Part shown: positions 7,474-46,682 of the stretch, one piece after another
Numbering within the stretch: position 1 is the stretch's first letter
Layout: each line of letters starts with the position of its first letter
Source of the DNA: Escherichia coli
GTDB lineage: Bacteria > Pseudomonadota > Gammaproteobacteria > Enterobacterales > Enterobacteriaceae
Length of the DNA stretch: 64,000 nt
Direction: 5' to 3' (one strand)
NCBI RefSeq assembly: GCF_030384885.1
Contig: NZ_CP128613.1
Notes under the pieces: model-generated
The model's input: only the letters and a program-made list of their open reading frames with translations
Told to the model about the DNA's origin: nothing
The model's database searches: none
Translations under genes and position numbers: made by a program

Positions 7474-8901
7474 CTAGCGCGACTGCTGATTATATTCATC
7501 ATCGCGTTGATAAGCTTCATCATTCGGCTGCTCCGGTACCGACCGCAGTCGATACTCTTCATCCTGGCTCACCGCTTGTTCAGCCAAATCCGGATTAATC
7601 TCGCGTTTAATTTCTACTCCTAAACCGCGAAACGCTTCTGCCTGCGCCAGCACATTTCCGCGACCTGAAGAGAGTTTTTTCATTGCCTGGCGATAGTTGT
7701 CCTGTGCTTTGTCCAGACTTTGACCAATCGCGGACATATCATCGACAAACAAGCGCATTTTGTCGTACAACTTGCTGGCGCGATCGGCTATTTTCTGGGC
7801 GTTACGACTTTGATGCTCATAGCGCCAGAGGTTGGCGATAGTGCGCAGCGCCACCAGCAGCGTGGTCGGGCTAACCAGCATGATATTGTTTTTCAACGCT
7901 TCGGTGATCAGCTCCGGCTGGCGGTCAAGCGCCAGTAAAAAAGCGGGTTCAACGGGAATAAACATCAGCACGTAATCCAGGGTTCGCAGCCCCGGCAGCT
8001 GTTGATAATCTTTGCGTCCCAGCAAACGGATATGGTTACGCACCGACGCGATATGTTCCTGTAGCGCGCTTTCGCGGGTGTAGTCGTCTTCTGCGTTGAA
8101 ATAGCGTTCATAGGCGACCAGTGTCATTTTTGCGTCGATCACCACATCTTTGCCCTGCGGCAACCGCACGATGACATCCGGCTGCATCCGCGAGCGGGCG
8201 TCATTTTCGATGCTGACCTGGGTTTCATATTCATACCCTTCACGCAGACCGGAAGCCTCCAGCACACGCGTCAATACTACCTCGCCCCAGTTGCCCTGGG
8301 TTTTATTGTCGCCTTTCAGCGCACGCGTCAGGTTGATCGCTTCCTGGGCCATTTGCGCGTTGAGCTGCTGGAGATTGCGTATTTCGTGAGTCAGGGTATG
8401 GCGTTCTTGTGCTTCTTTACCGAAACTGTCCTGAACCTGACGACGAAAACCGTCCAGTTGTTCACGTAGTGGCGACAACAGGCTGTTCAGACTCTGACGG
8501 TTTTGCTCATCAACCCGGCGATTGCTGTGCTCGAAAATACGGTTGGCGAGGTTTTCAAACTGCTCACTGAGGCGCTGTTCGCTGTTGATCATTTGGCGAA
8601 TTTTATCGTCAGCATGTTGCTGTACGGCCTCCATTCGCGTGGTGACTTCACGCAGATCCGCCTCCAGCGAGGTGTTAATGCTTTGCAGACTGCGCACTTC
8701 ATTATTGAGTAACTCGCACTCAGCACGCCAATGTTCGCTTTGGGTAATTTGTTGTTTTGCCGCACTTAACTCCGCGATCATCTCTTCACGTTCAGCGAAT
8801 TGCTCGGCTTTTTGCTGCGCATGCTGATAACTGGCAATCAGCCAGCCAATCGCCACGCTCACCAACGCAATAACTGCGTAAACCATGATTGAGATATCCA
8901 C
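7474..8901 (-). CDS. rmuC: DNA recombination protein RmuC
   Basis: ORF 7474..8994; product trimmed to a GTG start (VDISIMVYAVIALV...) giving the 475 aa RmuC length; coiled-coil-rich N-terminus. Confidence 0.85.
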   Translation of the reverse strand: MDISIMVYAVIALVSVAIGWLIASYQHAQQKAEQFAEREEMIAELSAAKQQITQSEHWRAECELLNNEVRSLQSINTSLEADLREVTTRMEAVQQHADDKIRQMINSEQRLSEQFENLANRIFEHSNRRVDEQNRQSLNSLLSPLREQLDGFRRQVQDSFGKEAQERHTLTHEIRNLQQLNAQMAQEAINLTRALKGDNKTQGNWGEVVLTRVLEASGLREGYEYETQVSIENDARSRMQPDVIVRLPQGKDVVIDAKMTLVAYERYFNAEDDYTRESALQEHIASVRNHIRLLGRKDYQQLPGLRTLDYVLMFIPVEPAFLLALDRQPELITEALKNNIMLVSPTTLLVALRTIANLWRYEHQSRNAQKIADRASKLYDKMRLFVDDMSAIGQSLDKAQDNYRQAMKKLSSGRGNVLAQAEAFRGLGVEIKREINPDLAEQAVSQDEEYRLRSVPEQPNDEAYQRDDEYNQQSR

Positions 8902-9018
8902 AACGCCTCCAGCCTCATTACTTACCCGCACAAAATAGAATTGTGCTGTACAAACGTCCAGTTTGAAAGAAGTTTCCTGCGAGGCGCTACGCAAAACGAT
9001 CCTTAATTTTTATTATTT

Positions 9019-9113: not shown

Positions 9114-9884
9114 CGTATGGCAGATACCTCTTCAACCACCGCTGGCGCACAAACGTTATTACGCGGGCTGGCGGTTCTTAATGCTGTTTATAACGGCTGC
9201 CATGACCTGAAAAGTATCGGCGAGTTCACCGGCACGACCCGGAGCACAACCCATCGTTTAGTCACCGTTCTGGTGGAACAACGCTACCTGCGCCACGTCC
9301 CAACGCAGGGCTACCAACTGGGCGCCAAACTGATCGAATTCGGTGCCAGAGCGCTGGAAAGCACCTCGCTGTACGAAATTGCGCTGCCCGTTTTGCAGCG
9401 TCTGGCCCGTTACACCCTGGACACCGTGCATCTGGGGATCGTTGAAGGCGACGAAGTGCTGTATCTGGAGAAGATCAACAGTCAGCGTGGGCTGGAAATG
9501 CGCTCACGCCCAGGCCATCGCATGCCACTGGCAATCACCGGCATCGGCAAGGCATTGATCCTCAACCGAACAGAAGAAGAGTGGCGCACGCTGTTTAAGA
9601 CCTGTGGTGATGAAACAAAACTGGGCACATTTATTCAGAACATGCGTCGTTATGCCGCCAGTGGTTTTGCTTTTGATCTGGAAGAGAACGAGCCGACTAT
9701 CCGTTGCGTTGCAGCGCCGGTTTACAACGCCCGGGATGAAATTGTGGCGGCTATTTCTGTCGCCAGTACCACTACGTATATGTCACTGGCGCGTCTGGAA
9801 GAACTGGCACCTTACGTCAAATCCTGTGCAGAAGAGATATCCGCTGAACTGGGCTGGGGTAAGCACGTCCGCAAAAATAAATAA
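9114..9884 (+). CDS. IclR/KdgR-family transcriptional regulator
   Basis: ORF 9030..9884; start trimmed to MADTSSTTAGAQTLLRGLAVLNAV (RBS AGGAG upstream); N-terminal HTH plus IclR-type effector domain (about 256 aa). Confidence 0.8.
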   Translation, partial: RMADTSSTTAGAQTLLRGLAVLNAVYNGCHDLKSIGEFTGTTRSTTHRLVTVLVEQRYLRHVPTQGYQLGAKLIEFGARALESTSLYEIALPVLQRLARYTLDTVHLGIVEGDEVLYLEKINSQRGLEMRSRPGHRMPLAITGIGKALILNRTEEEWRTLFKTCGDETKLGTFIQNMRRYAASGFAFDLEENEPTIRCVAAPVYNARDEIVAAISVASTTTYMSLARLEELAPYVKSCAEEISAELGWGKHVRKNK

Positions 9885-9907
9885 ACCATGACTAAAGGAA
9901 ACGGCTA

Positions 9908-10912
9908 ATGTCGGGAAACACCTCATTTATTGCCCTGGACTGGGGAACGTCATCGCTTCGGGCATGGCGTTTTGGCGACTCACCAAATCCACAAGAAAAA
10001 CGTGAATTCCCGTGGGGGATCATGAAATTACCCTCCCAGGCAGCAACACGTGAGGACGCTTTCCACGATACGTTTTTACGTGTCTGCGGCGACTGGCTGG
10101 CACAATCCCCATGCCCGATTCTGGCTTGCGGCATGATCGGCAGTGCGCAAGGGTGGCAACCCGCAGCTTATTTACCTTGCCCGGTCACTCTCGAGGGTCT
10201 GGCAAAGCAGTTGACGCCTGTTATCTACCAGCAGCAGACAATGCTGCACATCATTCCCGGCGTGATTAAAGAAGGTGAAATGCCCGAAGTGATGCGTGGC
10301 GAAGAGACACAAATCTTCGGTGCTATCTCGATGGAACCGGCCCTGCAAAACGCGCTCCGCCAGGGTATGCCTGTGCTGATTGGCTTACCTGGCACACATG
10401 CGAAATGGGCGGTAGTTGAAAACAACACCATTACCGATTTTCGAACCTTTATGACAGGCGAGTTATTTGATGTTTTATCCCGCCATTCGATTCTCGGTGC
10501 CACCATGCGTTCGGGAGATGAACCGCACTGGGATGCCTTCGCCCACGGGCTGACAGCGGCACAAGAGCATCATCAGACCGGATTATTATCGACGCTGTTT
10601 TCGACCCGTTCGCGCCTGCTGACCAGTAATCTTACGCCGTCCTCACAGGGGGATTACCTTTCAGGATTACTGATAGGCCATGAATTATGCGGTCTGGCAT
10701 CCAGTTTGCTACGTGATTTACCCGCCACAACACCGATCGCCTTAATCGGTAGCGCCACTCTGAACAGCCGCTATTCACAAGCATTCAGCCACGTTTTTCC
10801 CGACAGACAGCTACACGCCATTCCTAATGCCACTGAACAGGGGTTATGGCGAATCGCCCACGCTGCCGGGCTACTCTCCACCAACGCCAGGGAATGTACT
10901 CATGCCATTTAA
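9908..10912 (+). CDS. 2-dehydro-3-deoxygalactonokinase (DgoK)-family sugar-acid kinase
   Basis: 334 aa; motifs ALDWGTSSLRAW, MRGEETQIFGA, GTHAKW...ITDFRTFMTGELF align with DgoK hallmark motifs. Confidence 0.8.
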   Translation: MSGNTSFIALDWGTSSLRAWRFGDSPNPQEKREFPWGIMKLPSQAATREDAFHDTFLRVCGDWLAQSPCPILACGMIGSAQGWQPAAYLPCPVTLEGLAKQLTPVIYQQQTMLHIIPGVIKEGEMPEVMRGEETQIFGAISMEPALQNALRQGMPVLIGLPGTHAKWAVVENNTITDFRTFMTGELFDVLSRHSILGATMRSGDEPHWDAFAHGLTAAQEHHQTGLLSTLFSTRSRLLTSNLTPSSQGDYLSGLLIGHELCGLASSLLRDLPATTPIALIGSATLNSRYSQAFSHVFPDRQLHAIPNATEQGLWRIAHAAGLLSTNARECTHAI

Positions 10913-11531
10913 TACGCTTTTGCAAAAAACCGGGTTAGTCGCCATTTTACGCGGCGTGAAACCGGATGAGATTGTCGCCATCGGTGAAAAGCTGTATGCC
11001 GCTGGATTTCGCCTGATTGAGATTCCCATGAACTCGCCGGAGCCGTTGCAAAGTATCAGTTTACTGCGCGACGCCCTGCCTAAGGACTGCCTGGTCGGAG
11101 CCGGAACGGTGCTTTCGGTGGAGCAAGTCGTCGCGGTTAAAGAGGCTGGAGGCCAGATTATCGTAATGCCGCATTGCGATACTGCGGTGATCCGTCGTGC
11201 CCGTGCGCTGGGTATGTATTGTGCGCCTGGCGTCGCTACGCCCACCGAAGCTTTTGCTGCCATTGAACATGGCGCCAATGCCATCAAGCTGTTCCCGGCT
11301 GAACAAATTACGCCTGAAGTCACCAAAGCCTGGCGTGCGGTTATTCCACAATCCGTTCCGATGTTACCGGTTGGCGGTATCACTCCAGACACAATGGCGC
11401 GTTATCTGAGCCACGGCGCAAACGGCTTTGGCCTCGGTTCTGCGCTATATCGCCCCGGCATGACGCCAGAGCAAGTCTATGAAAATGCAGTACTGTTTAT
11501 GAACGCATGGAACAATTTAAATAGCAAATAA
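10902..11531 (+). CDS. KDPGal/KDPG aldolase (DgoA/Eda-family)
   Basis: ORF 10827..11531; start trimmed to MPFNTLLQKTGLVAILRGV at 10902, overlapping the kinase stop (translational coupling); strong resemblance to DgoA. Confidence 0.8.
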   Translation: MPFNTLLQKTGLVAILRGVKPDEIVAIGEKLYAAGFRLIEIPMNSPEPLQSISLLRDALPKDCLVGAGTVLSVEQVVAVKEAGGQIIVMPHCDTAVIRRARALGMYCAPGVATPTEAFAAIEHGANAIKLFPAEQITPEVTKAWRAVIPQSVPMLPVGGITPDTMARYLSHGANGFGLGSALYRPGMTPEQVYENAVLFMNAWNNLNSK

Positions 11532-11555
11532 CTGATAAATAAGGATATAAAAGCA

Positions 11556-12530
11556 ATGATAAAACATCTTACCTTACCGAAAAAAATGGCTGCAATGGTA
11601 CTTCTTGCCGGCGCTGCCCTCAGCACTGCGCCTGTGCAGGCGGCCTCCTGGCCAACCAAACAGATCGAGTTAGTCGTACCCTACGCGGCCGGAGGCGGTA
11701 CGGATCTGGTTGCCCGTGCCTTTGCTGATGCCGCCAAAAACCATTTGCCCGTCAGCATCGGGGTTATCAATAAACCTGGCGGTGGCGGCGCTATCGGCCT
11801 GAGTGAAATCGCCGCTGCCCGCCCTAACGGTTACAAAATGGGTTTAGGCACGGTTGAACTGACCACCCTTCCCAGTCTCGGAATGGTGCGTTTTAAAACC
11901 AGCGACTTTAAACCCATTGCCCGTCTGAATGCGGATCCTGCGGCTATCACCGTCCGTGCCGATGCACCGTGGAATAGCTATGAAGAATTTATGACTTACG
12001 CCAAAGCGAATCCCGGAAAAGTACGCATTGGTAACTCAGGCACCGGAGCAATCTGGCATCTGGCGGCAGCTGCACTGGAAGACAAAACGGGCGTGAAGTT
12101 TTCTCATGTCCCATATGACGGCGCAGCCCCTGCCATTACAGGCCTGTTAGGCGGGCATATTGAAGCGGTTTCCGTAAGCCCAGGTGAAGTTATCAATCAT
12201 GTGAAAGGCGGCAAGCTGAAGACACTGGTAGTGATGGCGGATGAACGTATGAAAACCATGCCTGACGTCCCGACGTTAAAAGAGAAAGGCGTTGATCTCT
12301 CCATCGGCACCTGGCGCGGCCTGATTGTGTCGCAAAAAACGCCGCAGGATGTGGTTGATGTTCTGGCTAAGGCCGCAAAAGAGACGGCTGAAGAGCCTGC
12401 ATTCCAGGATGCTCTGCAAAAGTTGAATCTCAACTATGCATGGCTTGATGGTGCCAGCTTCCAGACCCAAATCAACGAACAGGAAAAGTACTTTGACGAG
12501 TTACTAACTCGGCTGGGCTTGAAAAAATAA
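11556..12530 (+). CDS. tctC: Tripartite tricarboxylate transporter substrate-binding protein (TctC/Bug family), periplasmic
   Basis: 324 aa with N-terminal signal peptide MIKHLTLPKKMAAMVLLAGAALSTAPVQA; TctC-like fold motifs. Confidence 0.8.
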   Translation: MIKHLTLPKKMAAMVLLAGAALSTAPVQAASWPTKQIELVVPYAAGGGTDLVARAFADAAKNHLPVSIGVINKPGGGGAIGLSEIAAARPNGYKMGLGTVELTTLPSLGMVRFKTSDFKPIARLNADPAAITVRADAPWNSYEEFMTYAKANPGKVRIGNSGTGAIWHLAAAALEDKTGVKFSHVPYDGAAPAITGLLGGHIEAVSVSPGEVINHVKGGKLKTLVVMADERMKTMPDVPTLKEKGVDLSIGTWRGLIVSQKTPQDVVDVLAKAAKETAEEPAFQDALQKLNLNYAWLDGASFQTQINEQEKYFDELLTRLGLKK

Positions 12531-12546
12531 TCCCGAGGTACGGTCG

Positions 12547-13053
12547 ATGAACACAAAACAGTCTGTTGCTCAACTCGCCGTACCGCACCGCAAGCGCTTT
12601 TCATCCACTGTGGTGGTGGCGCTGTTACTTTGTGTGGTTGCTGGCGCGGTGATAATTAATGCCGCTGATTTTCCAGCAACTGCCATTGAAACGGATCCCG
12701 GTGCAAGTGCCTTCCCTACTTTCTATGCCTGCGCTCTGATTGTGCTCGCTGTCTTACTGGTGATACGCGATCTTTTGCTGGCAAAACCAGTCCCTTGCGC
12801 CAACGCACAGGAAAAACCGGCATTCAGGAAAACGGCAACGGGAATTGCGGCAACCGCGTTTTATATTGTGGCGATGAGCTACTGCGGTTATCTCATTACT
12901 ACTCCTGTTTTCCTCATCGTCATTATGACGTTGATGGGCTACAGGCGATGGGTACTCACACCGGGTATTGCGCTGCTGTTAACGGCAATCCTCTGGTTGC
13001 TGTTTGTCGAAGCGTTACAGGTGCCATTGCCTGTCGGCACATTTTTCGAATAA
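12547..13053 (+). CDS. tctB: Tripartite tricarboxylate transporter small membrane subunit (TctB family)
   Basis: 168 aa, four hydrophobic segments; position between tctC and tctA. Confidence 0.7.
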   Translation: MNTKQSVAQLAVPHRKRFSSTVVVALLLCVVAGAVIINAADFPATAIETDPGASAFPTFYACALIVLAVLLVIRDLLLAKPVPCANAQEKPAFRKTATGIAATAFYIVAMSYCGYLITTPVFLIVIMTLMGYRRWVLTPGIALLLTAILWLLFVEALQVPLPVGTFFE

Positions 13054-13065
13054 CAGGGGCCTGCA

Positions 13066-14556
13066 ATGTTTGAAAGTGAACTTTTAACTCAGGGGTTTTC
13101 GACATTACTCAGTAATCCTCAGGCGCTGCTGTTTGCCACGTTTGGAGTGATACTGGGTATTATGATTGGCGCTCTGCCTGGCCTGACAGCGACCATGGGT
13201 GTGGCGATTTTGCTGCCTTTCACCTACGGCATGGAGCCTGTTTCTGGCTTGTTGATGATTTGCGGTGTCTTTTTTGGTGGTGTGTATGGTGGTTCTATCA
13301 CCGCAATTTTGCTCAAAATTCCCGGTACGCCTGCCGCCGCTGCCACCGCCATTGACGGTTATGAGTTAACGAAGCAGGGAAAAGCCGGGCTGGCATTAAG
13401 TGCCGCCACGTTCTCTTCTTTTAGCGGTGGAACGCTCAGCATTATCGTATTGATGTTTCTCTCTCCGGTACTTGCCAGTTGGGCGTTGAAATTTAGTGCC
13501 TCGGAGTCCTTCGCCCTGGCAACCTTCGGACTAAGTATTATTGCCAGTATTTCCGGTGAGTCACTGATTAAAGGGCTGATTGCCGGGGTTGGCGGATTAC
13601 TGATCGCAACGATAGGCCTCGATCCGATGGGCGGTTTTCCACGCTTTACGGGCGGGTTTGTGGAACTGATGAATGTGCCATTTATCCCGGTGATGATTGG
13701 TCTGTTTGCTGCTTCAGAAGCGTTCCGTTCTATGGAACAAAATCAGCATATTCGTCAGAGCGCGAACGTGGCTATCGGCAGTCTGTTACTGCCCTGGCAA
13801 ACGCTACGCCGCATCGCATTAACCATTTTGCGCTCATCAGGATTAGGGGTTTTTATCGGCATGATCCCCGGTGCGGGGGCAGATATTGCAGCTTTTGTTG
13901 CCTATAACGAAACTCGTCGTTTCAGTAAGACGCCTGAAAACTTTGGTAAGGGTGAGATTAAGGCGGTGGCCTCCTGTGAGGCAGGCGCGAATGGCTGCAC
14001 CGGTGGCGCATTGTTACCTATGCTGACGTTGGGGATCCCAGGCGATGCGGTAACTGCCATCATGCTGGGCGCGTTAACGTTACAAGGGATGCAGCCAGGC
14101 CCACTGATGTTTACCGACCACGGCGATATGGTTTATACGCTGTTTGTCGGCATGATCTTTTGTTACTTCATGCTGCTAGTTCTTGGACTGCTCTCTTTGA
14201 AAGTCATCGGTAACGTGGTGAAGATCCCCGGCAATATTCTCACGCCGATGATCCTCGCACTTTGTGTGGTCGGGACTTATGCGTTGAACAATAGCCTGTT
14301 TGATGTTGGCATTATGCTGATTGCAGGCGTGGTGGGCTATTTCATGCAAAAAGGGGGGTATCCGGCATCACCCGTAGTGCTGGCATTGATTATGGGGCCA
14401 ATGGCGGAAAGTAATTTTCGCCGTGCGCTGTCGCTTTCTGGTGGGTCACTCGACTTTCTGTATACCCGACCGATAACCCTGGCATTGCTGACACTGGCAG
14501 CCTTTACGCTACTGACGCCAATAATACGCAAAATTATGCGCTTACGGCGTCAGTAA
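13066..14556 (+). CDS. tctA: Tripartite tricarboxylate transporter large permease (TctA family)
   Basis: 496 aa polytopic membrane protein; TctA-like glycine-rich hydrophobic segments. Confidence 0.85.
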   Translation: MFESELLTQGFSTLLSNPQALLFATFGVILGIMIGALPGLTATMGVAILLPFTYGMEPVSGLLMICGVFFGGVYGGSITAILLKIPGTPAAAATAIDGYELTKQGKAGLALSAATFSSFSGGTLSIIVLMFLSPVLASWALKFSASESFALATFGLSIIASISGESLIKGLIAGVGGLLIATIGLDPMGGFPRFTGGFVELMNVPFIPVMIGLFAASEAFRSMEQNQHIRQSANVAIGSLLLPWQTLRRIALTILRSSGLGVFIGMIPGAGADIAAFVAYNETRRFSKTPENFGKGEIKAVASCEAGANGCTGGALLPMLTLGIPGDAVTAIMLGALTLQGMQPGPLMFTDHGDMVYTLFVGMIFCYFMLLVLGLLSLKVIGNVVKIPGNILTPMILALCVVGTYALNNSLFDVGIMLIAGVVGYFMQKGGYPASPVVLALIMGPMAESNFRRALSLSGGSLDFLYTRPITLALLTLAAFTLLTPIIRKIMRLRRQ

Positions 14557-16996: not shown

Positions 16997-18145
16997 ATGA
17001 GTGATATTATCTACCTGACCATAACCGGAGAACAACACGGATGTATTTCCTCTCGTTGTGGAACGAGCACATCAATAGGTAATCGCTGGCAGATTGGTCA
17101 TGAAGATGAAATCTTCGCATTCTCGCTCTCTAATAGTATTACGAATACAGGAAAAGGGTCACATTTGCATGGCCTTAGTTTCTGTAAGTTGATTGACAAA
17201 AGCTCCCCGTTACTTATTAACGCTATTAACAATAACGAGCAGTTGTTCATGGAGTTTGACTTCTATCGGATCAATAGATTTGGTCGATGGGAGAAATATT
17301 ACAACATTCAACTCCGCGGCGCGCTCTTATCAGCAATCAATCACCTGTTTACGGAGAACAATCTGGATACAGAAACCATCACTGTCAGTTATGAATATAT
17401 ACTCTCCAGGCATCTGATTGCTAATACTGAATTTAGTTATTTGGCATTTCCCGATAACTACAATCGTCTGTTTATACCACGGCCAAAAACTAAAGATGAT
17501 AATGGCCTCAAAACACTCAATAGTAAAGCTGTTGGCAGACTGCTTGCTGCTGGCGGCATATACAATGGGAATATCGAAGGATTCAGGGAAACAGCAAACA
17601 AGTTGGGGGGAGATGCACCTGCTGGTTACGATCAAGTTATGGATAACAAAGGGTTACTCATCGCTGGTGCTTCAATAGTTGCTGGAGCAGTTCTGGGGAG
17701 AATGAGACTCCCTGATTTGGAATCACTTGAGCATTTCGGAGCCAGAGGAGCAGTATCAGGAAGACCATTTAATCCCGACCTTGCCGGTGGTCCAATAGAA
17801 AATCTGACGACAGATGGCGTAACAATCAACAGGGAAGGTATCGCTATTGTTGAAAAACACATAGCCAGATTTGGTCATGACCCTGTAAATGAAGTGATGA
17901 TCAATAGACTGAAAGACATTGAGAAAGGAAAAATCCCCCCAGAACAAGTAGATCTTAACTTCTATACTCATGAATGTCGGGAATATCAGCGTTACTGTAA
18001 TCTTGGTTGGGAAACAGGACAACCTGATGGTGACGCAGGCTATGCACTCTGGAATCATACGCATACTGCTACTCTAGAAGATTATAAACTTAAGGGAGAA
18101 CTTAATGACTTATACCACCAGGACGCACTTGACTATGATAACTGA
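16997..18145 (+). CDS. Hcp (T6SS tube protein TssD) N-terminal domain fused to a C-terminal extension of unknown function, Hcp-ET-like; not associated with a T6SS gene cluster
   Basis: 382 aa; residues 1-155 carry the Hcp hallmark ...HGLSFCKLIDKSSPLLINAINNNEQLFMEFDFYRI...; residues about 156-382 are an extension with no Hcp counterpart; RBS AAGGA upstream; AT-rich. Confidence 0.75.
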   Translation: MSDIIYLTITGEQHGCISSRCGTSTSIGNRWQIGHEDEIFAFSLSNSITNTGKGSHLHGLSFCKLIDKSSPLLINAINNNEQLFMEFDFYRINRFGRWEKYYNIQLRGALLSAINHLFTENNLDTETITVSYEYILSRHLIANTEFSYLAFPDNYNRLFIPRPKTKDDNGLKTLNSKAVGRLLAAGGIYNGNIEGFRETANKLGGDAPAGYDQVMDNKGLLIAGASIVAGAVLGRMRLPDLESLEHFGARGAVSGRPFNPDLAGGPIENLTTDGVTINREGIAIVEKHIARFGHDPVNEVMINRLKDIEKGKIPPEQVDLNFYTHECREYQRYCNLGWETGQPDGDAGYALWNHTHTATLEDYKLKGELNDLYHQDALDYDN

Positions 18146-18380
18146 AACTGAAATTAACATACTGAAAGTTATGGCTGAGAAAGATATAAACTGGAACTGG
18201 ATGAATCTCGATCGCACACTATCTATAAGGCAAATTCCAGGATTCGGTAATGTTGTTAACATTGTTAACAAATTAGCTAACGAGGGTTTGGTTATTATTG
18301 AGGATAGCGGACATAAGTCTATGCCTCACTACCACGTTACTGATAAGGGATACAATCTCGTGAAAAGTGAGAATAAATAA
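18105..18380 (+). CDS. Small protein overlapping the 3' end of the Hcp-fusion gene; candidate cognate immunity protein (alternative start at 18135)
   Basis: 91 aa ORF with GGGAG RBS; overlaps the upstream stop, typical of toxin-immunity pairs; no recognisable family. Confidence 0.5.
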   Translation: MTYTTRTHLTMITETEINILKVMAEKDINWNWMNLDRTLSIRQIPGFGNVVNIVNKLANEGLVIIEDSGHKSMPHYHVTDKGYNLVKSENK

Positions 18381-31166: not shown

Positions 31167-31179
31167 TTATGGAGTATTT

Positions 31180-31560
31180 ATGAGTAAGGAATATATGAAC
31201 GATGGTTCATTAAGTGAAAAATGGAAATATCGCTTTAGTTTTTATGATCAACATGGCTTTCCTGGATTCTGGGGGGCAACACCAGAATATAAAGCAGCAT
31301 TTAAAGCATTAAAAGTAAGACAACGATTAACTATTCAAATTAATTTCATTGCTTTCTTCTGTTCCTGGATCTATCTATTTGTTCTGGGTTTATGGAAAAA
31401 AGCAATTATAGTTCTATTACTTTGCATTCTATCTCTATTTGTTGGTGCACTAATTGGCGTTAACATTTTGGGAATTGCCGTAGCAGCCTATGTTGCTGTT
31501 AACACGAACAAATGGTTTTATGAGAAAGAGGTAAAAGGGTTAAATACCTGGAGCCTTTGA
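31180..31560 (+). CDS. yigF: Small inner-membrane protein YigF (DUF2628)
   Basis: ORF 31138..31560; internal Met gives MSKEYMNDGSLSEKWKYRFSFYDQHGFPGFWGA... (126 aa). Confidence 0.6.
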   Translation: MSKEYMNDGSLSEKWKYRFSFYDQHGFPGFWGATPEYKAAFKALKVRQRLTIQINFIAFFCSWIYLFVLGLWKKAIIVLLLCILSLFVGALIGVNILGIAVAAYVAVNTNKWFYEKEVKGLNTWSL

Positions 31561-40538: not shown

Positions 40539-42017
40539 ATGCACTATCGCAATGTGGTTTGTTTGTTGTCTTGTTCGTTATTCTTATCCCCGGCATGGGG
40601 ATGTCGGCTTTCCGCGCCTGAACATAATATTTACCAGAAACAGGGAAAAGGCGTGGTGTACCTGCGCCCTTATAAAGAAACAAATCTTTCTCTACCTGAC
40701 GTGAATTACAAGAGTTTGCGTCGTTTACCTAATTTATTAATAGACGCAACAACACAAGATGAATGGAATAAAGAACCACCTCTGACTGATCTAACAACTG
40801 ACAACCTCTATGAGGGCGCACAAGCCTGGTATCCCCATTACTCCTGGCATAGCGATGGTCGCTATATCCTCTACGCGGGTGAAGTAGTGCAAAATCCTCA
40901 CGACGCACCACCCGTCGATATCGCCTCATTCAAGGCATGGGGAGATTTTGCCGCGGATAAACACAGTCTCTATTTTGAAGGCAAGCGCACCGATAACAAT
41001 GGCGGGGGAAATAGCTTAGATATCAAAACACTGCATCAGGTGGAATTCCGGCCTCCCTGGGATCCTGACTTACTGGGGCTGATATTACGTGACGCTAATT
41101 TCTTGTATATCAATGGGCATCGCCTCGCAGATCCCGATAGTTTCCGTGTGCTGGCACAAAAGTCATGGGATCAGCGAGGAAAGTTTTCTACCGCGTTTAA
41201 TCCCTGTGTGGCTATGCCATTTGGCCCTTGGGATACCCTGGCTCGTACACGGACCAAAATCCTGATCAACGGCGAACAGCTTGATGCCGACCCGGACACC
41301 TTTTCCGTCGTGCGCTGGATGCCCGGCTCACTCTTGACCTGGCGTGATAAAAACGGGCTACAGCGTAAAGTCCTCGACAAGGAAAATCTGGCGTGGGATG
41401 AAGATTTAACAAAGCACTGTCTGGATTTTTCTCTGCTGGAAAAGAAAGTGTTCTGGCGTAAAGGGCCTGCTTGTAAACAGGAAGAAGTACCGGGGCTCGA
41501 TCCTGAACAGTTCCACCCCATCAGTGATGCTGTCGCCCAGTATCAGGATTCGCTTTATACCATCATCGAAACAGAGTCTGGTGACCGCAACCTGGAGATC
41601 GTAAAACTTGATGATCCCAATCTTATTATCAACAAACGTTTCAACGCCGGGAAACGCCATGGCTATTTACTTACGCGTGCCGAAGGGTGGCCAAACCATT
41701 CCGGTTTACACGTGTTTGAATCTGACGGACCGCTGATCTTACTGGATAACCACTCTCCGGATGAACGCGAAGCCCATCTTGATGACCATCCCTTTTTGCG
41801 CAGATGGTATGCCCGCGATAACCGCTACGTTTACAGCTTTGATGGCGCGCAGCTCTGGCGATACCGCACCGCGGATCCGAAACAAGTTCGCTTAATCTGG
41901 AAGGAACAACATTCGGGATATGGCTATGGCGTAAATTACAAAACGGGATATCTGGACGGAAAAATTACCGATGACGGCGAATTTATTCCTGCCCCGCGCA
42001 ATGAGGCGACAAAATGA
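40539..42017 (+). CDS. Secreted repeat protein, paralog 1 (DKNYY-like repeats; unknown function)
   Basis: ORF 40509..42017; start trimmed to MHYRNVVCLLSCSLFLSPAWG (signal-like); internal repeats such as DANFLYINGHRLADPDSFRV / TKILINGEQLDADPDTFSVV. Confidence 0.65.
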   Translation: MHYRNVVCLLSCSLFLSPAWGCRLSAPEHNIYQKQGKGVVYLRPYKETNLSLPDVNYKSLRRLPNLLIDATTQDEWNKEPPLTDLTTDNLYEGAQAWYPHYSWHSDGRYILYAGEVVQNPHDAPPVDIASFKAWGDFAADKHSLYFEGKRTDNNGGGNSLDIKTLHQVEFRPPWDPDLLGLILRDANFLYINGHRLADPDSFRVLAQKSWDQRGKFSTAFNPCVAMPFGPWDTLARTRTKILINGEQLDADPDTFSVVRWMPGSLLTWRDKNGLQRKVLDKENLAWDEDLTKHCLDFSLLEKKVFWRKGPACKQEEVPGLDPEQFHPISDAVAQYQDSLYTIIETESGDRNLEIVKLDDPNLIINKRFNAGKRHGYLLTRAEGWPNHSGLHVFESDGPLILLDNHSPDEREAHLDDHPFLRRWYARDNRYVYSFDGAQLWRYRTADPKQVRLIWKEQHSGYGYGVNYKTGYLDGKITDDGEFIPAPRNEATK

Positions 42018-43342
42018 AAGGTCAAATAATCACAGTTGCACTCATCCTGTTGGGGCACACATTTCTGACACCTGCTGTACAGGCCATAGGGTTCGACTAT
42101 TACAATGATCACGGTGTTATGTCTTACGGTAAAGGTTATGGGGAGGATGAGAAAATTATTGCCCAATTTCCGAAGATGAACAGAGCCGATTTGCGCCTTG
42201 TGACAAATATATCCGGGAAGCGGGAGTTAGTGGAAGGCTATATACCCACCGATGAAATAAGCATAAAAAATGAGGAATACCACTGGGTGACAGACGGCCA
42301 CGTTATTCTCTGGCGTGGCAAAATCGTTAGCAATCCACCGGGAACACCCACTGTCGATATTGCCAGCTTTCAAGCTATGGGCCGCTTCGCGGTCGATAAA
42401 TATAGCCTCTATTTTGACGGACAGCGCACCGAAAGTAATAGCGGCGCGTCACGTGTTGATCTGGCGACACTAAAAGCTATCGAAGGTAACTCTACCACGC
42501 TGGTGGATAGTAAAAATCTCTACTTGTCCGGTCGACGTCAGGGGAGCAGCAGTAATGTTACTGTATTAGAAAAAAGATGGTGGGGTATTAATCCACGTCT
42601 TATGAGTGTAAACAGAAATTTGTATTCCAATGATCTGCTTATCCGCAGTGGGCAGAATATTTATTTAAATGGCGTTCACCTTACGGCAAATGCAGACTCA
42701 TTTGAGATAATTCGCTGGATACCTCATTCACTGCTGGTTTTTCGCGACAATAAGGGTATGCATCGTTATCCCTTTGGTCAATTATCAGGCAAGGCAATAC
42801 CCGTAGATGATGACGTCTCTTTTGAAGTAGGGGAAAGTCGCGTTCGCTGGCGTAAACAGCTCACGCCCGACCGTCAGTGGAGCCAGTGGATAGACCTACC
42901 AAGTATTGAACCTGAACAATTTCATCTGATTACTGACAATATTGCGCAGTATAAAGATCGGCTGTATGTAACAAAATTATCGACTTTTGGTGAAGACCAG
43001 CTTGAAATAATCCCGCTGGATTCGCCAGACCTGGTCATTGATCACTCATTTAATCGCGGCAAACAGCATGCTTACTTTATCCACCAATTACGGTCACGCA
43101 AGAGCGTGCAAATTATTCCAACTAACAGCCCGCTAACTAAAAACGATCGCTTTGCTTATGACGATCGCAATGTTTATACATGGACCGATACAGAGGTAAG
43201 GATTACACCCTCCCCCTGCCCAGCGAAAACATACGTCAGAGAAAAGAATGTCCGTGAAATTCATAACAGCGACATTATTATTCCGGTGACGGAGGAATCG
43301 TGCCGGAACGCAGCAGCAGACGGGCAAACTTTGAAGCCCTGA
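42014..43342 (+). CDS. Secreted repeat protein, paralog 2 (DKNYY-like repeats; unknown function)
   Basis: 442 aa; signal peptide [24 protein letters not shown]; start ATG overlaps the upstream stop (ATGA); shares blocks VDIASF.A.G.FA.DK.SLYF.G.RT and EPEQFH.I.D..AQY.D.LY with paralog 1. Confidence 0.7.
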
Positions 43343-43389
43343 CACCATGCCGCTATACTGCCGCCATCACCTTAAAACAGGAAACAACA

Positions 43390-43710
43390 ATGAACGACAG
43401 TGAATTTCATCGCCTGGCTGATCAACTCTGGCTGACCATTGAAGAGCGTCTGGATGACTGGGATGGCGACAGCGATATCGACTGCGAAATCAACGGCGGT
43501 GTGCTGACCATTACCTTTGAAAATGGCAGCAAAATCATTATCAACCGTCAGGAACCGCTGCACCAGGTTTGGCTGGCAACCAAACAGGGCGGCTACCATT
43601 TTGATCTGAAAGGCGACGAATGGATTTGCGACCGTAGCGGCGAAACCTTCTGGGATTTGCTGGAACAGGCGGCAACGCAGCAAGCGGGTGAAACAGTCAG
43701 TTTCCGCTAA
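43390..43710 (+). CDS. cyaY: Frataxin homolog CyaY
   Basis: ORF 43300..43710; start trimmed to [37 protein letters not shown] (106 aa). Confidence 0.95.
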
Positions 43711-43749
43711 GATTGCATGCCGGATAAGCCTCGCTTTCCGGCACGCTCA

Positions 43750-46296
43750 TCACGAAAAATACTGCTGTAATAGCGGCGTGTCGTGATCCTGATTGGCAGG
43801 CGGCATGTTGCCGATAGATTTGGTGCGGAACGGAATCACCTGTTCACGACCATCAACCGTCACAATTTGATAGAACTGCGGCAGGTTGAAGTTGATGAAG
43901 CTTGAGCCGTAGGTAAAACGGTCGTGCGATGACGAGTAGAAGCGACTGACGTCACGCACCAGCTCCTCTTTGCTGCCTTCGCAGTGGTGATACACCTCAA
44001 CCCGGTTGCTTTCGTCGAGAATGTAGATATTAAAGCCATTCTCGTCTTGCGTTTCTTCGAAGAAGAACTGGATGATCCCTTCGCTGGCAAAGCCGTCCAC
44101 CACCGCCGGTAATTTGACGTGATTGGTTTCAACCTGCACTGACAGGCCGTGCAGTTTGTTATGCGAAATAGCGCCATAAAACTCGATGGCATTTTCCAGT
44201 TTCTGTACCGATACATTCAGGCGTTCGAAGAATAAGCCCCAAGTTTGACCAGAAACGCGCAGCGCCTTGAAGCGCCCGGTTTCCTGGCGGGTGCTGGACA
44301 GACGCAGTTCAATGCACTCAGAAACCAGTTGCTGCACGCGAGTACGGATTAAGCCGCGCAGATGCTGGCTGTAGCAGAAGACTTCCACGCTATCTGGCGG
44401 TGCGGCGTCCTGATGCATTTTGCCGAGAATAGTTTTCAGGGCTTCGATCATCGACTGCTCGCCGTTGAAGTGCAGCGTACGCACTTCGTTCCACGAGTTG
44501 CGGTACAGCAGGTCAACGCTACCTACCAGGCAATTTTGGTTTTCGCCAAAGCTGAAGACGTCCAACTTACGGAAATCAAAATGCACCACCTGATTGCGGA
44601 ACGCAGCTGTCGGGTCATATTCCAGGTTAACGATAATCGCCAGATGGCGAATTTCACACGGGCTGTAGAGCGCTTTTGGCGTCGGTGCAGGCAGGCGCAG
44701 CGGGAAATGGTGCGACACATCGGCGACCATCTCCTGCAACTTAGGCAAATCGACAATGCCGTTGCCTTTAATATACAAGCGGGTGCGCGAGGTCAGCAGG
44801 CCGTTAAACCATGCCCACGCCACCAGTTTATTCAGGTAACGGTTATATTCCAGCGGCTGATGGCTGATGATCGACTCAATATTTGGCGCGCGGTTATACA
44901 GATACCAACCTGAACGGTTAGCCCGGCCCGGCGGCACATAAATAAAGGTCAGATTCGGTTCCGAGAGATCGGGCGAAATCTGCGGGTTTACCAGCGTCAC
45001 TTTACCTGGCAATGCTTCAAACGCAGCGTACAGTTTACGCGTCAGAACACCGATATCCTGTGGGCTGGCGGAGACGCTAAGGTTATTGCGACGCGCAAAG
45101 CGGATCAGATTACGGTAGCTCTGCATCATTGCATCGAGCAGCTCGTTGTGCGCCTCACGCACCTGATCAATCTTCCAGTTAGCGCGGTTATCGAGCATTG
45201 CAAGACGACCATCGTCCCATTCCCACTCTTTCACTAACTGGGTTAGCACTTCACGACGCCAGCCTACACAGGCGCGTTCACGGCTGAGTTTTTCGCACAC
45301 TTTTAAATAGAAGCAGCGACGCACTAAATCCAGACGGGTGAAATCTTCAATCGCCGTCAGGTATTCAGTAACACGCTCCAGCATCATGCAGTACGGATCG
45401 AGACCAAACGATACAATCTCGCCGTCGTGCAAACGCTGTTTGATATCTTTCGCCAGCAGACGTGGGTTCGGGTATTCCCAGGAATAGGCTTCCAGCAGCA
45501 GTGTTTTCAGCACCGCTTTGTATGGGGAATCGATACTCTTATAGAGCTGCCAAAGGCTGGCACCAAAGTACTCTTCGGCAGAAAGTGAGCTTAAGCCGCC
45601 GAGATCCAGCCATTCATTAGGAGTAAGCACGCCCTGCGCGTAAAGCGTCATCACATAGTCGTCGTAATGCTCTTCTTCGTCACACGGCACCATATTCCAC
45701 AGAATACGCTTACCCGCGAGACGCACGGCAGTGCGATAAAATTCGTCAAGCAGCAGTATATGCTGGGTGGAGCCACAATCTTCGCCCCCCAGGCTGCCGC
45801 TTTCATTATGACGGAAGCGATTTTCATCAATCAGGAAGAAGCTAACTTCCACGCCCAGCGAGGCGGCCCAGCTTTCCAGCAGGCTGCATTTACGTTGTAG
45901 TAACTGGCGCTCTTCGCTATCAAGCCAGGATTGATGACAGACCCAGATATCCAGGTCAGAGGAACAACTTTGCCCTACGGACGAGGTGCTGCCCATGGTG
46001 TATACACCAGTAATTGGAAGCTCACCTTTCGGCGGATCCTGTACTGACATTCCACGATACAGTTCAAGCTCGTTCAGGTAGTGGCGTTGAGTTTCATCAG
46101 GCGTGTAAAGGCAAATGCCTTTGGGAACGTTACCATCAAGGTAACCCGGCATTAGCGGATGGTGATAGTGCAACAATGTCGGCAGTAGACTGTAGACCTG
46201 CTGGAATGCAGGCCCCATAGCAGCAAGCGCGCGATCCACACGCAATTGATTTATGGCATCCAGTCTCTGTTTCAGAGTCTCAATATAGAGGTACAA
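43750..46296 (-). CDS. cyaA: Adenylate cyclase (class I)
   Basis: 848 aa ...[30 protein letters not shown]...; initiation codon is TTG (ttg tac ctc tat att gag on the reverse strand). Confidence 0.95.
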
Positions 46297-46682
46297 GACG
46301 TATCGCCTGATTTGCTACCCGTCATGACTGTGATTCCGCCAACATCAACGGTAACACGCGGCATTCGGGATATTTCGTATGTCAAAGGTAACCGTTACCA
46401 CTTTTCGCGCCTGGTTTTTTTAGTTTCACGACGAAAAAATGGTCTAAAACGTGATCAATTTAACACCTTGCTGATTGACCGTAAAGAAAGATGCGCTACA
46501 TACAAGTGTAGCACCGTTTATTCTCTGTAAATTCCTTATTACGACGGCGTGAAACGCCTGTCAGGATCCACTGCCAGACCTCATTTTACGGTTTGCGCAG
46601 GCGTCTACGTTTCACCACAACACTGACATCGCTCTGGCAAGGATGTTAGGATGGACCACGGATGATAATGACGGTAACAAGC

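Follow-up and report, generated by a model that had tools for sequence, protein, structure and literature searches.

The two genes and their surroundings

The window, that is, the whole stretch of 64,000 nucleotides that was analysed, carries on its minus strand the genes cyaA and rmuC, which are annotated with TTG and GTG initiation codons, respectively (Table 1). It is 100% identical to positions 3430606-3494605 of the chromosome of E. coli 2013C-4282 (NZ_CP027579.1), as established by megablast (two matches) and by an exact substring comparison, and the RefSeq annotation of that chromosome places, in window coordinates, cyaA (WP_105271959.1) at 43750-46296 and rmuC (WP_000355274.1) at 7474-8901. 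The coordinates that head a sequence-only reading of this DNA, 43750-46296, take in cyaA; rmuC lies outside them.

Table 1. Coordinates in the window of cyaA, rmuC and the features around their starts
Feature	Position	Strand	Basis
rmuC CDS, 475 aa + stop	7474..8901	minus	translation, RefSeq, Pfam, NCBIfam
rmuC GTG initiation codon	8899..8901	minus	sequence, 80-genome comparison
GGAGG Shine-Dalgarno, 4-nt spacer to rmuC GTG	8906..8910	minus	sequence
Allele-specific rmuC leader patch (1-nt deletion + 5 substitutions vs K-12)	8911..8921	minus	pairwise alignment
31-codon in-frame upstream extension (TTG 8994, GTG 8931) giving a 506-aa ORF; read as probable untranslated leader	8902..8994	minus	
cyaA CDS, class I adenylate cyclase, 848 aa + stop	43750..46296	minus	ORF list, translation, RefSeq
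cyaA TTG initiation codon	46294..46296	minus	sequence, conservation, literature
TCAGGCGA, putative weak Shine-Dalgarno-like element (AGG), ~9 nt before cyaA TTG	46303..46310	minus	sequence; function presumed
In-frame stop (TAG) bounding the cyaA frame, 21 nt before TTG	46315..46317	minus	sequence

The cyaA locus has the expected arrangement, divergent from hemC and followed by cyaY, both in the 2013C-4282 genome and in the K-12 annotation, and hemC adjoins cyaA in some of the homologous loci described below as well. The K-12 gene (b3806) is the same in its TTG start, in the in-frame TAG at -21, in its length of 848 aa and in its neighbours hemC and cyaY. Pairwise alignment shows that the window and K-12 are base-for-base identical from -245 to +94 and that 91 nucleotide differences are spread across the gene and the 400 nt upstream of it. 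At the protein level there are eight amino-acid differences, none of them near the start. Six of these are clustered in the 15 residues 349-363 (A349E, S352T, S356K, G359E, E362D and A363G), which correspond to cyaA nt 1043-1094, at about 45203-45254 of the window, and just two lie elsewhere; the cluster looks like a short recombination patch.

RmuC, as the 475-aa protein, begins VDISIMVYAV, has a hydrophobic N-terminal segment at residues 3-24 and contains the RmuC domain (Pfam PF02646) at residues 136-432 (E 2e-109). Its K-12 counterpart, rmuC/yigN (b3832), is the same in its GTG start, its GGAGGCGTT spacer, its 475 aa and the position of ubiE downstream, and differs in eight amino acids and in the leader, where the patch found in the window opens the upstream frame. 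Comparison with reference proteins, the check named in the sequence-only reading, thus gave identical starts and lengths for b3806 and b3832. The two strains also differ in the upstream neighbour of rmuC, which in K-12 is udp, whereas in the window a 5.4-kb IclR/dgoK-like/TctABC insertion (9117-14556) separates rmuC from udp. This block is absent from K-12 and present in ATCC 25922, and it encodes an IclR-family regulator, a 2-dehydro-3-deoxygalactonokinase, a KDPGal aldolase and a tripartite tricarboxylate transporter of the TctABC type.

Further features of the window were recorded away from the two starts. Between ysgA and metE (16997-18379), RefSeq annotates a frameshifted pseudogene of tssD, the type VI secretion tube protein, together with a small hypothetical gene, and it also reports yigF as frameshifted (31179-31558). 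An adjacent pair of DKNYY-family genes lies between lptM and cyaY (41142-43945), directly downstream of the neighbour of cyaA, where K-12 has yzcX only.

The TTG start codon of cyaA

The cyaA frame reads TTG TAC CTC TAT ATT GAG from position 46296, just as the sequence-only reading had quoted it, although that reading gave no strand. No ATG, GTG or TTG lies between this TTG and the upstream in-frame TAG, so that the frame cannot start earlier than this TTG, and the next in-frame start-type codons after it are codons 18, 20 and 27. Of 5425 complete E. coli genomes, 5418 contain the exact 60-mer from -30 to +30 around the codon; seven carry it with one mismatch, which in the single one that was read falls at -25, outside the codon.

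Homologues were retrieved by a search with the N-terminal 200 aa of CyaA, and the DNA of nine matches, ranging from 98% to 47% identity, was examined. These nine loci include Salmonella enterica, Photobacterium sanctipauli and an Aeromonas veronii MAG, and several of them are metagenomic contigs. The homologous codon is TTG in every one of the nine, and alignment of the homology-search matches shows that the CyaA N-termini are homologous from residue 1. Outside Enterobacterales, codon 2 and the leader of these homologues are wholly divergent, and the TTG is still kept. The weak Shine-Dalgarno-like ATCAGGCGA is kept too in the five enterobacterial homologues (L087-L091).

The same protein comparison bears on whether translation of cyaA could begin downstream in the same frame, for instance at the ATG of codon 27 or 49, the TTG being merely the mechanical start of the ORF. 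The frame does offer ATGs at codons 27, 49, 83 and 101, but residues 1-26 are conserved at the protein level down to 47% identity, and none of the nine homologues has exchanged the TTG for another codon. The profiles point the same way: the first of the two Pfam domains, Adenyl_cycl_N (PF12633; residues 5-200, E 1e-82, followed by PF01295 at residues 228-825, E 5e-258), begins already at residue 5, and the alignment to the NCBIfam equivalog NF006977 (2045 bits, curated cut-off 1761) begins at residue 1 and covers 1-848 of 848. A downstream start is also contradicted by the published mutagenesis quoted below, in which changing the TTG to GTG or ATG alters the yield of adenylate cyclase, and the chance that it is the true one is vanishingly small.

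The start at the TTG therefore rests on the comparison, on the annotation and on published mutagenesis, the last of which is cited here at second hand. According to PMC5499595, mutagenesis of the cyaA start codon gave a ratio of 1:2:6 for UUG:GUG:AUG (Reddy et al. 1985). The same article states, with reference to Reddy et al. 1985 and Trotot et al. 1996, that the UUG is conserved among Enterobacterales and in other gamma-proteobacteria; PMC5622118 likewise cites Reddy et al. 1985. In addition, cya is listed among the genes whose inefficient UUG or GUG initiation is enhanced by polyamines (PMC7177335). That the UUG limits the yield of adenylate cyclase has thus been demonstrated by experiment for E. 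coli cyaA, and the weakness of the codon has been quantified in the literature. The proposal made from the sequence, that the TTG is a weak start that limits adenylate cyclase synthesis, agrees with the published ratio and with the invariance of the codon among the homologues. Mechanistically, the UUG (46296-46294), preceded by what appears to be a weak AGG-type Shine-Dalgarno element, would pair poorly with the initiator tRNA, so that initiation would be inefficient and adenylate cyclase would be kept low.

Some observations were made beside the main comparison. In L091, a metagenomic enterobacterial homologue, the gene caller chose a GTG that precedes the conserved TTG by 33 nt and adds 11 residues to the protein; this extension is a longest-ORF artefact of the same kind as the 506-aa rmuC ORF discussed below. 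In the intergenic region between hemC and cyaA, some 155 nt before the TTG, the minus strand carries TGTTAaattgaTCACG at 46450-46465. This motif resembles a CRP site (TGTGA-N6-TCACA), which we presume would fit the known repression of cyaA by cAMP-CRP. Scans of the cyaA and rmuC leaders for sigma-70 promoters and terminators gave matches no better than those in shuffled controls and yielded no transcription start against which the upstream rmuC candidates could be set.

The GTG start codon of rmuC

The longest ORF that can be delimited mechanically at rmuC (7474..8994, minus strand) starts with TTG and encodes 506 aa. The in-frame candidates upstream of the annotated GTG are this TTG at -93 (8994-8992) and a GTG at -30 (8931-8929). 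A further TTG, at 8903-8901, overlaps the annotated GTG and was set aside, as it is in the wrong frame. When the 506-aa ORF is compared with the NCBIfam equivalog NF007686 (1058 bits, cut-off 810), positions 1-475 of the 475 in the profile correspond to residues 32-506, that is, the alignment begins exactly at the GTG. The additional 31 residues gave no family match in Pfam and fall outside the NCBIfam RmuC profile.

The surroundings of the start were compared among species-representative genomes, restricted to Enterobacteriaceae, the best 80 of 399 matches being used; all the counts that follow refer to these 80. The codon homologous to the GTG is GTG in 72 of them, ATG in five and TTG in three. 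An in-frame stop codon is found at most 45 nt upstream of it in 63, and 54 have no further in-frame start between that stop and the codon. A G-rich motif resembling a Shine-Dalgarno sequence precedes the start in all 80, with a spacer of 4 nt in 73. Column entropy follows a codon pattern (0.91/0.65/1.44 for positions 1, 2 and 3) downstream of the start only, while upstream of it the only conserved columns are those of the Shine-Dalgarno positions.

These data also weigh on a start inside the annotated gene, at the ATG of codon 6 (8886-8884), which would give 470 aa and leave the GTG unused. Codon 6 is the first ATG in the rmuC frame, and gene finders lean to ATG; it is ATG, however, in just 12 of the 80 species, the others having ATT, ATC, CTG or GTG there. 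The GGAGG would stand 19 nt upstream of codon 6, as against the fixed 4-nt spacer before the codon at the GTG position, and that codon is itself ATG in five species. Initiation at codon 6 is accordingly held to be extremely improbable.

A strong GGAGG stands four bases before the GUG (8901-8899) of rmuC, and initiation at this codon would yield the 475-aa protein. The sequence-only reading had likewise preferred this product to the 506-aa one, in agreement with K-12 b3832, with RefSeq, with the 80 genomes and with the NCBIfam profile. In the accessible papers and supplements, no experiment was found that maps the N-terminus of RmuC or its initiation site directly; the rmuC start accordingly has comparison and annotation as its basis, two strong lines of evidence that agree. 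Neither rmuC/yigN nor cyaA appears in the TetRP supplement tables, in the TRAINSPOTTER supplements or in the main text of the retapamulin preprint, an absence that is uninformative. In E. coli GTG is a common start codon, opening about one gene in seven, and to our knowledge no regulatory meaning is attached to the GTG of rmuC.

The leader allele of rmuC and the reading of both starts

In K-12, ATCC 25922 and strain 11202 an in-frame TAA at -24 closes the rmuC frame and is followed by no start codon before the GTG, so that in these strains the GTG is the first possible start. The window differs from K-12 by the leader patch, in which it reads gtaag-taatgaggctGGAGGcgttGTG where K-12 reads gtaagttgttgcgtcaGGAGGcgttGTG; the patch puts the TAA out of frame, and consequently the frame is open back to the TTG at 8994. 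The longest ORF is therefore the wrong one, because it is an allele-specific 1-nt deletion in the leader that opens the upstream frame. As an indel that shifts the frame between alleles of one species, the deletion is also a strong argument against a coding role for the stretch.

Among 5426 complete E. coli genomes, 352 (about 6%) have the window-type leader, 17 of them matching exactly and 335 with one mismatch, and K-12-type leaders with at least 95% match are found in 4989 complete E. coli genomes. The patch occurs, besides the window, in Escherichia sp. MOD1-EC7003 (L007) and E. coli SCPM-O-B-8794 (L012), and in all three the frame is open from 8994. This openness, and the number of genomes that share the window-type leader, are what speaks for translation of this allele, wholly or partly, from the TTG at 8994 or the GTG at 8931, with products of 506 or 485 aa. 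Against it, the majority E. coli allele has the TAA at -24, which shuts the extension, and 63 of the 80 species (best 80 of 399 matches) have a stop close by that does likewise; among the differences between the alleles there is also a 1-nt indel, and such an indel would not be tolerated in coding sequence. Neither of the two upstream codons has a recognisable Shine-Dalgarno sequence, the extension finds no family and lies outside the RmuC profile, and RefSeq retains the 475-aa call even in the strains with the open leader. An upstream start is on these grounds considered very improbable. The 506-aa ORF would instead be a by-product of the 1-nt deletion in an untranslated leader, its translation not being expected, and we infer that in this strain the extension is left untranslated.

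Taken jointly, the best reading, and an almost certain one, is that both genes start at their annotated non-AUG codons, the UUG of cyaA and the GUG of rmuC, and that the 506-aa ORF is a by-product. Both starts are standard states of E. coli and are already annotated, and that of cyaA is in the literature as well; the original observation is correct and not new. Conserved non-AUG starts described in gamma-proteobacteria include spoT (UUG), hupB (GUG), tufA/fus (GUG) and infC (AUU), with cyaA in the same list (PMC5499595). cyaA resembles spoT, hupB, tufA/fus and infC in that a weak start codon is kept at a fixed position over a long evolutionary distance. The GTG of rmuC, too, is retained in 72 of the 80 Enterobacteriaceae genomes (best 80 of 399 matches), but, unlike the spoT/hupB/tufA/infC set, the codon is not strictly fixed, being ATG in five of these genomes and TTG in three.

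The relevance of these starts goes little beyond the quality of annotation. The intact UUG of cyaA, a documented brake on a potent signalling enzyme, shows that the strain is normal and no more, and rmuC offers a small, clear lesson for automated ORF tracks, since other alleles and other species point directly to the 475-aa product.

A single item is new, if mildly: the leader change itself, which creates both the 506-aa ORF and an overlapping upstream ORF, with no sign that either of them matters. The patch produces an out-of-frame ATG (8918-8916), which opens on the minus strand a uORF of 19 codons (8862-8918) that overlaps the rmuC GTG and ends at a TGA (8861-8859). That this allele, through the extension and the uORF, might change RmuC expression or give rise to an N-terminally extended isoform in the lineages that carry it is considered very unlikely. 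In its 5' 500 nt the rmuC region shares about 92% identity with most E. coli, and only 18 records reach at least 99%; this suggests that the leader and 5' region of rmuC may have been acquired by recombination import.

The out-of-frame ATG of the patch is also the only one close to the rmuC start on its upstream side. The in-frame upstream ATG, translation from which had been named in the sequence-only reading as evidence against the GTG, is absent from the window. An in-frame ATG 72 nt (24 codons) upstream of the rmuC GTG does exist in E. coli 2013C-3181 (L098) and GCM39-10-2-9-3-1 (L100), and it may be the one that was meant; the window has gaaacttc at this position instead. Both of these strains have a shifted leader related to that of the window, together with the udp-adjacent context, and RefSeq still calls the 475-aa protein in them.
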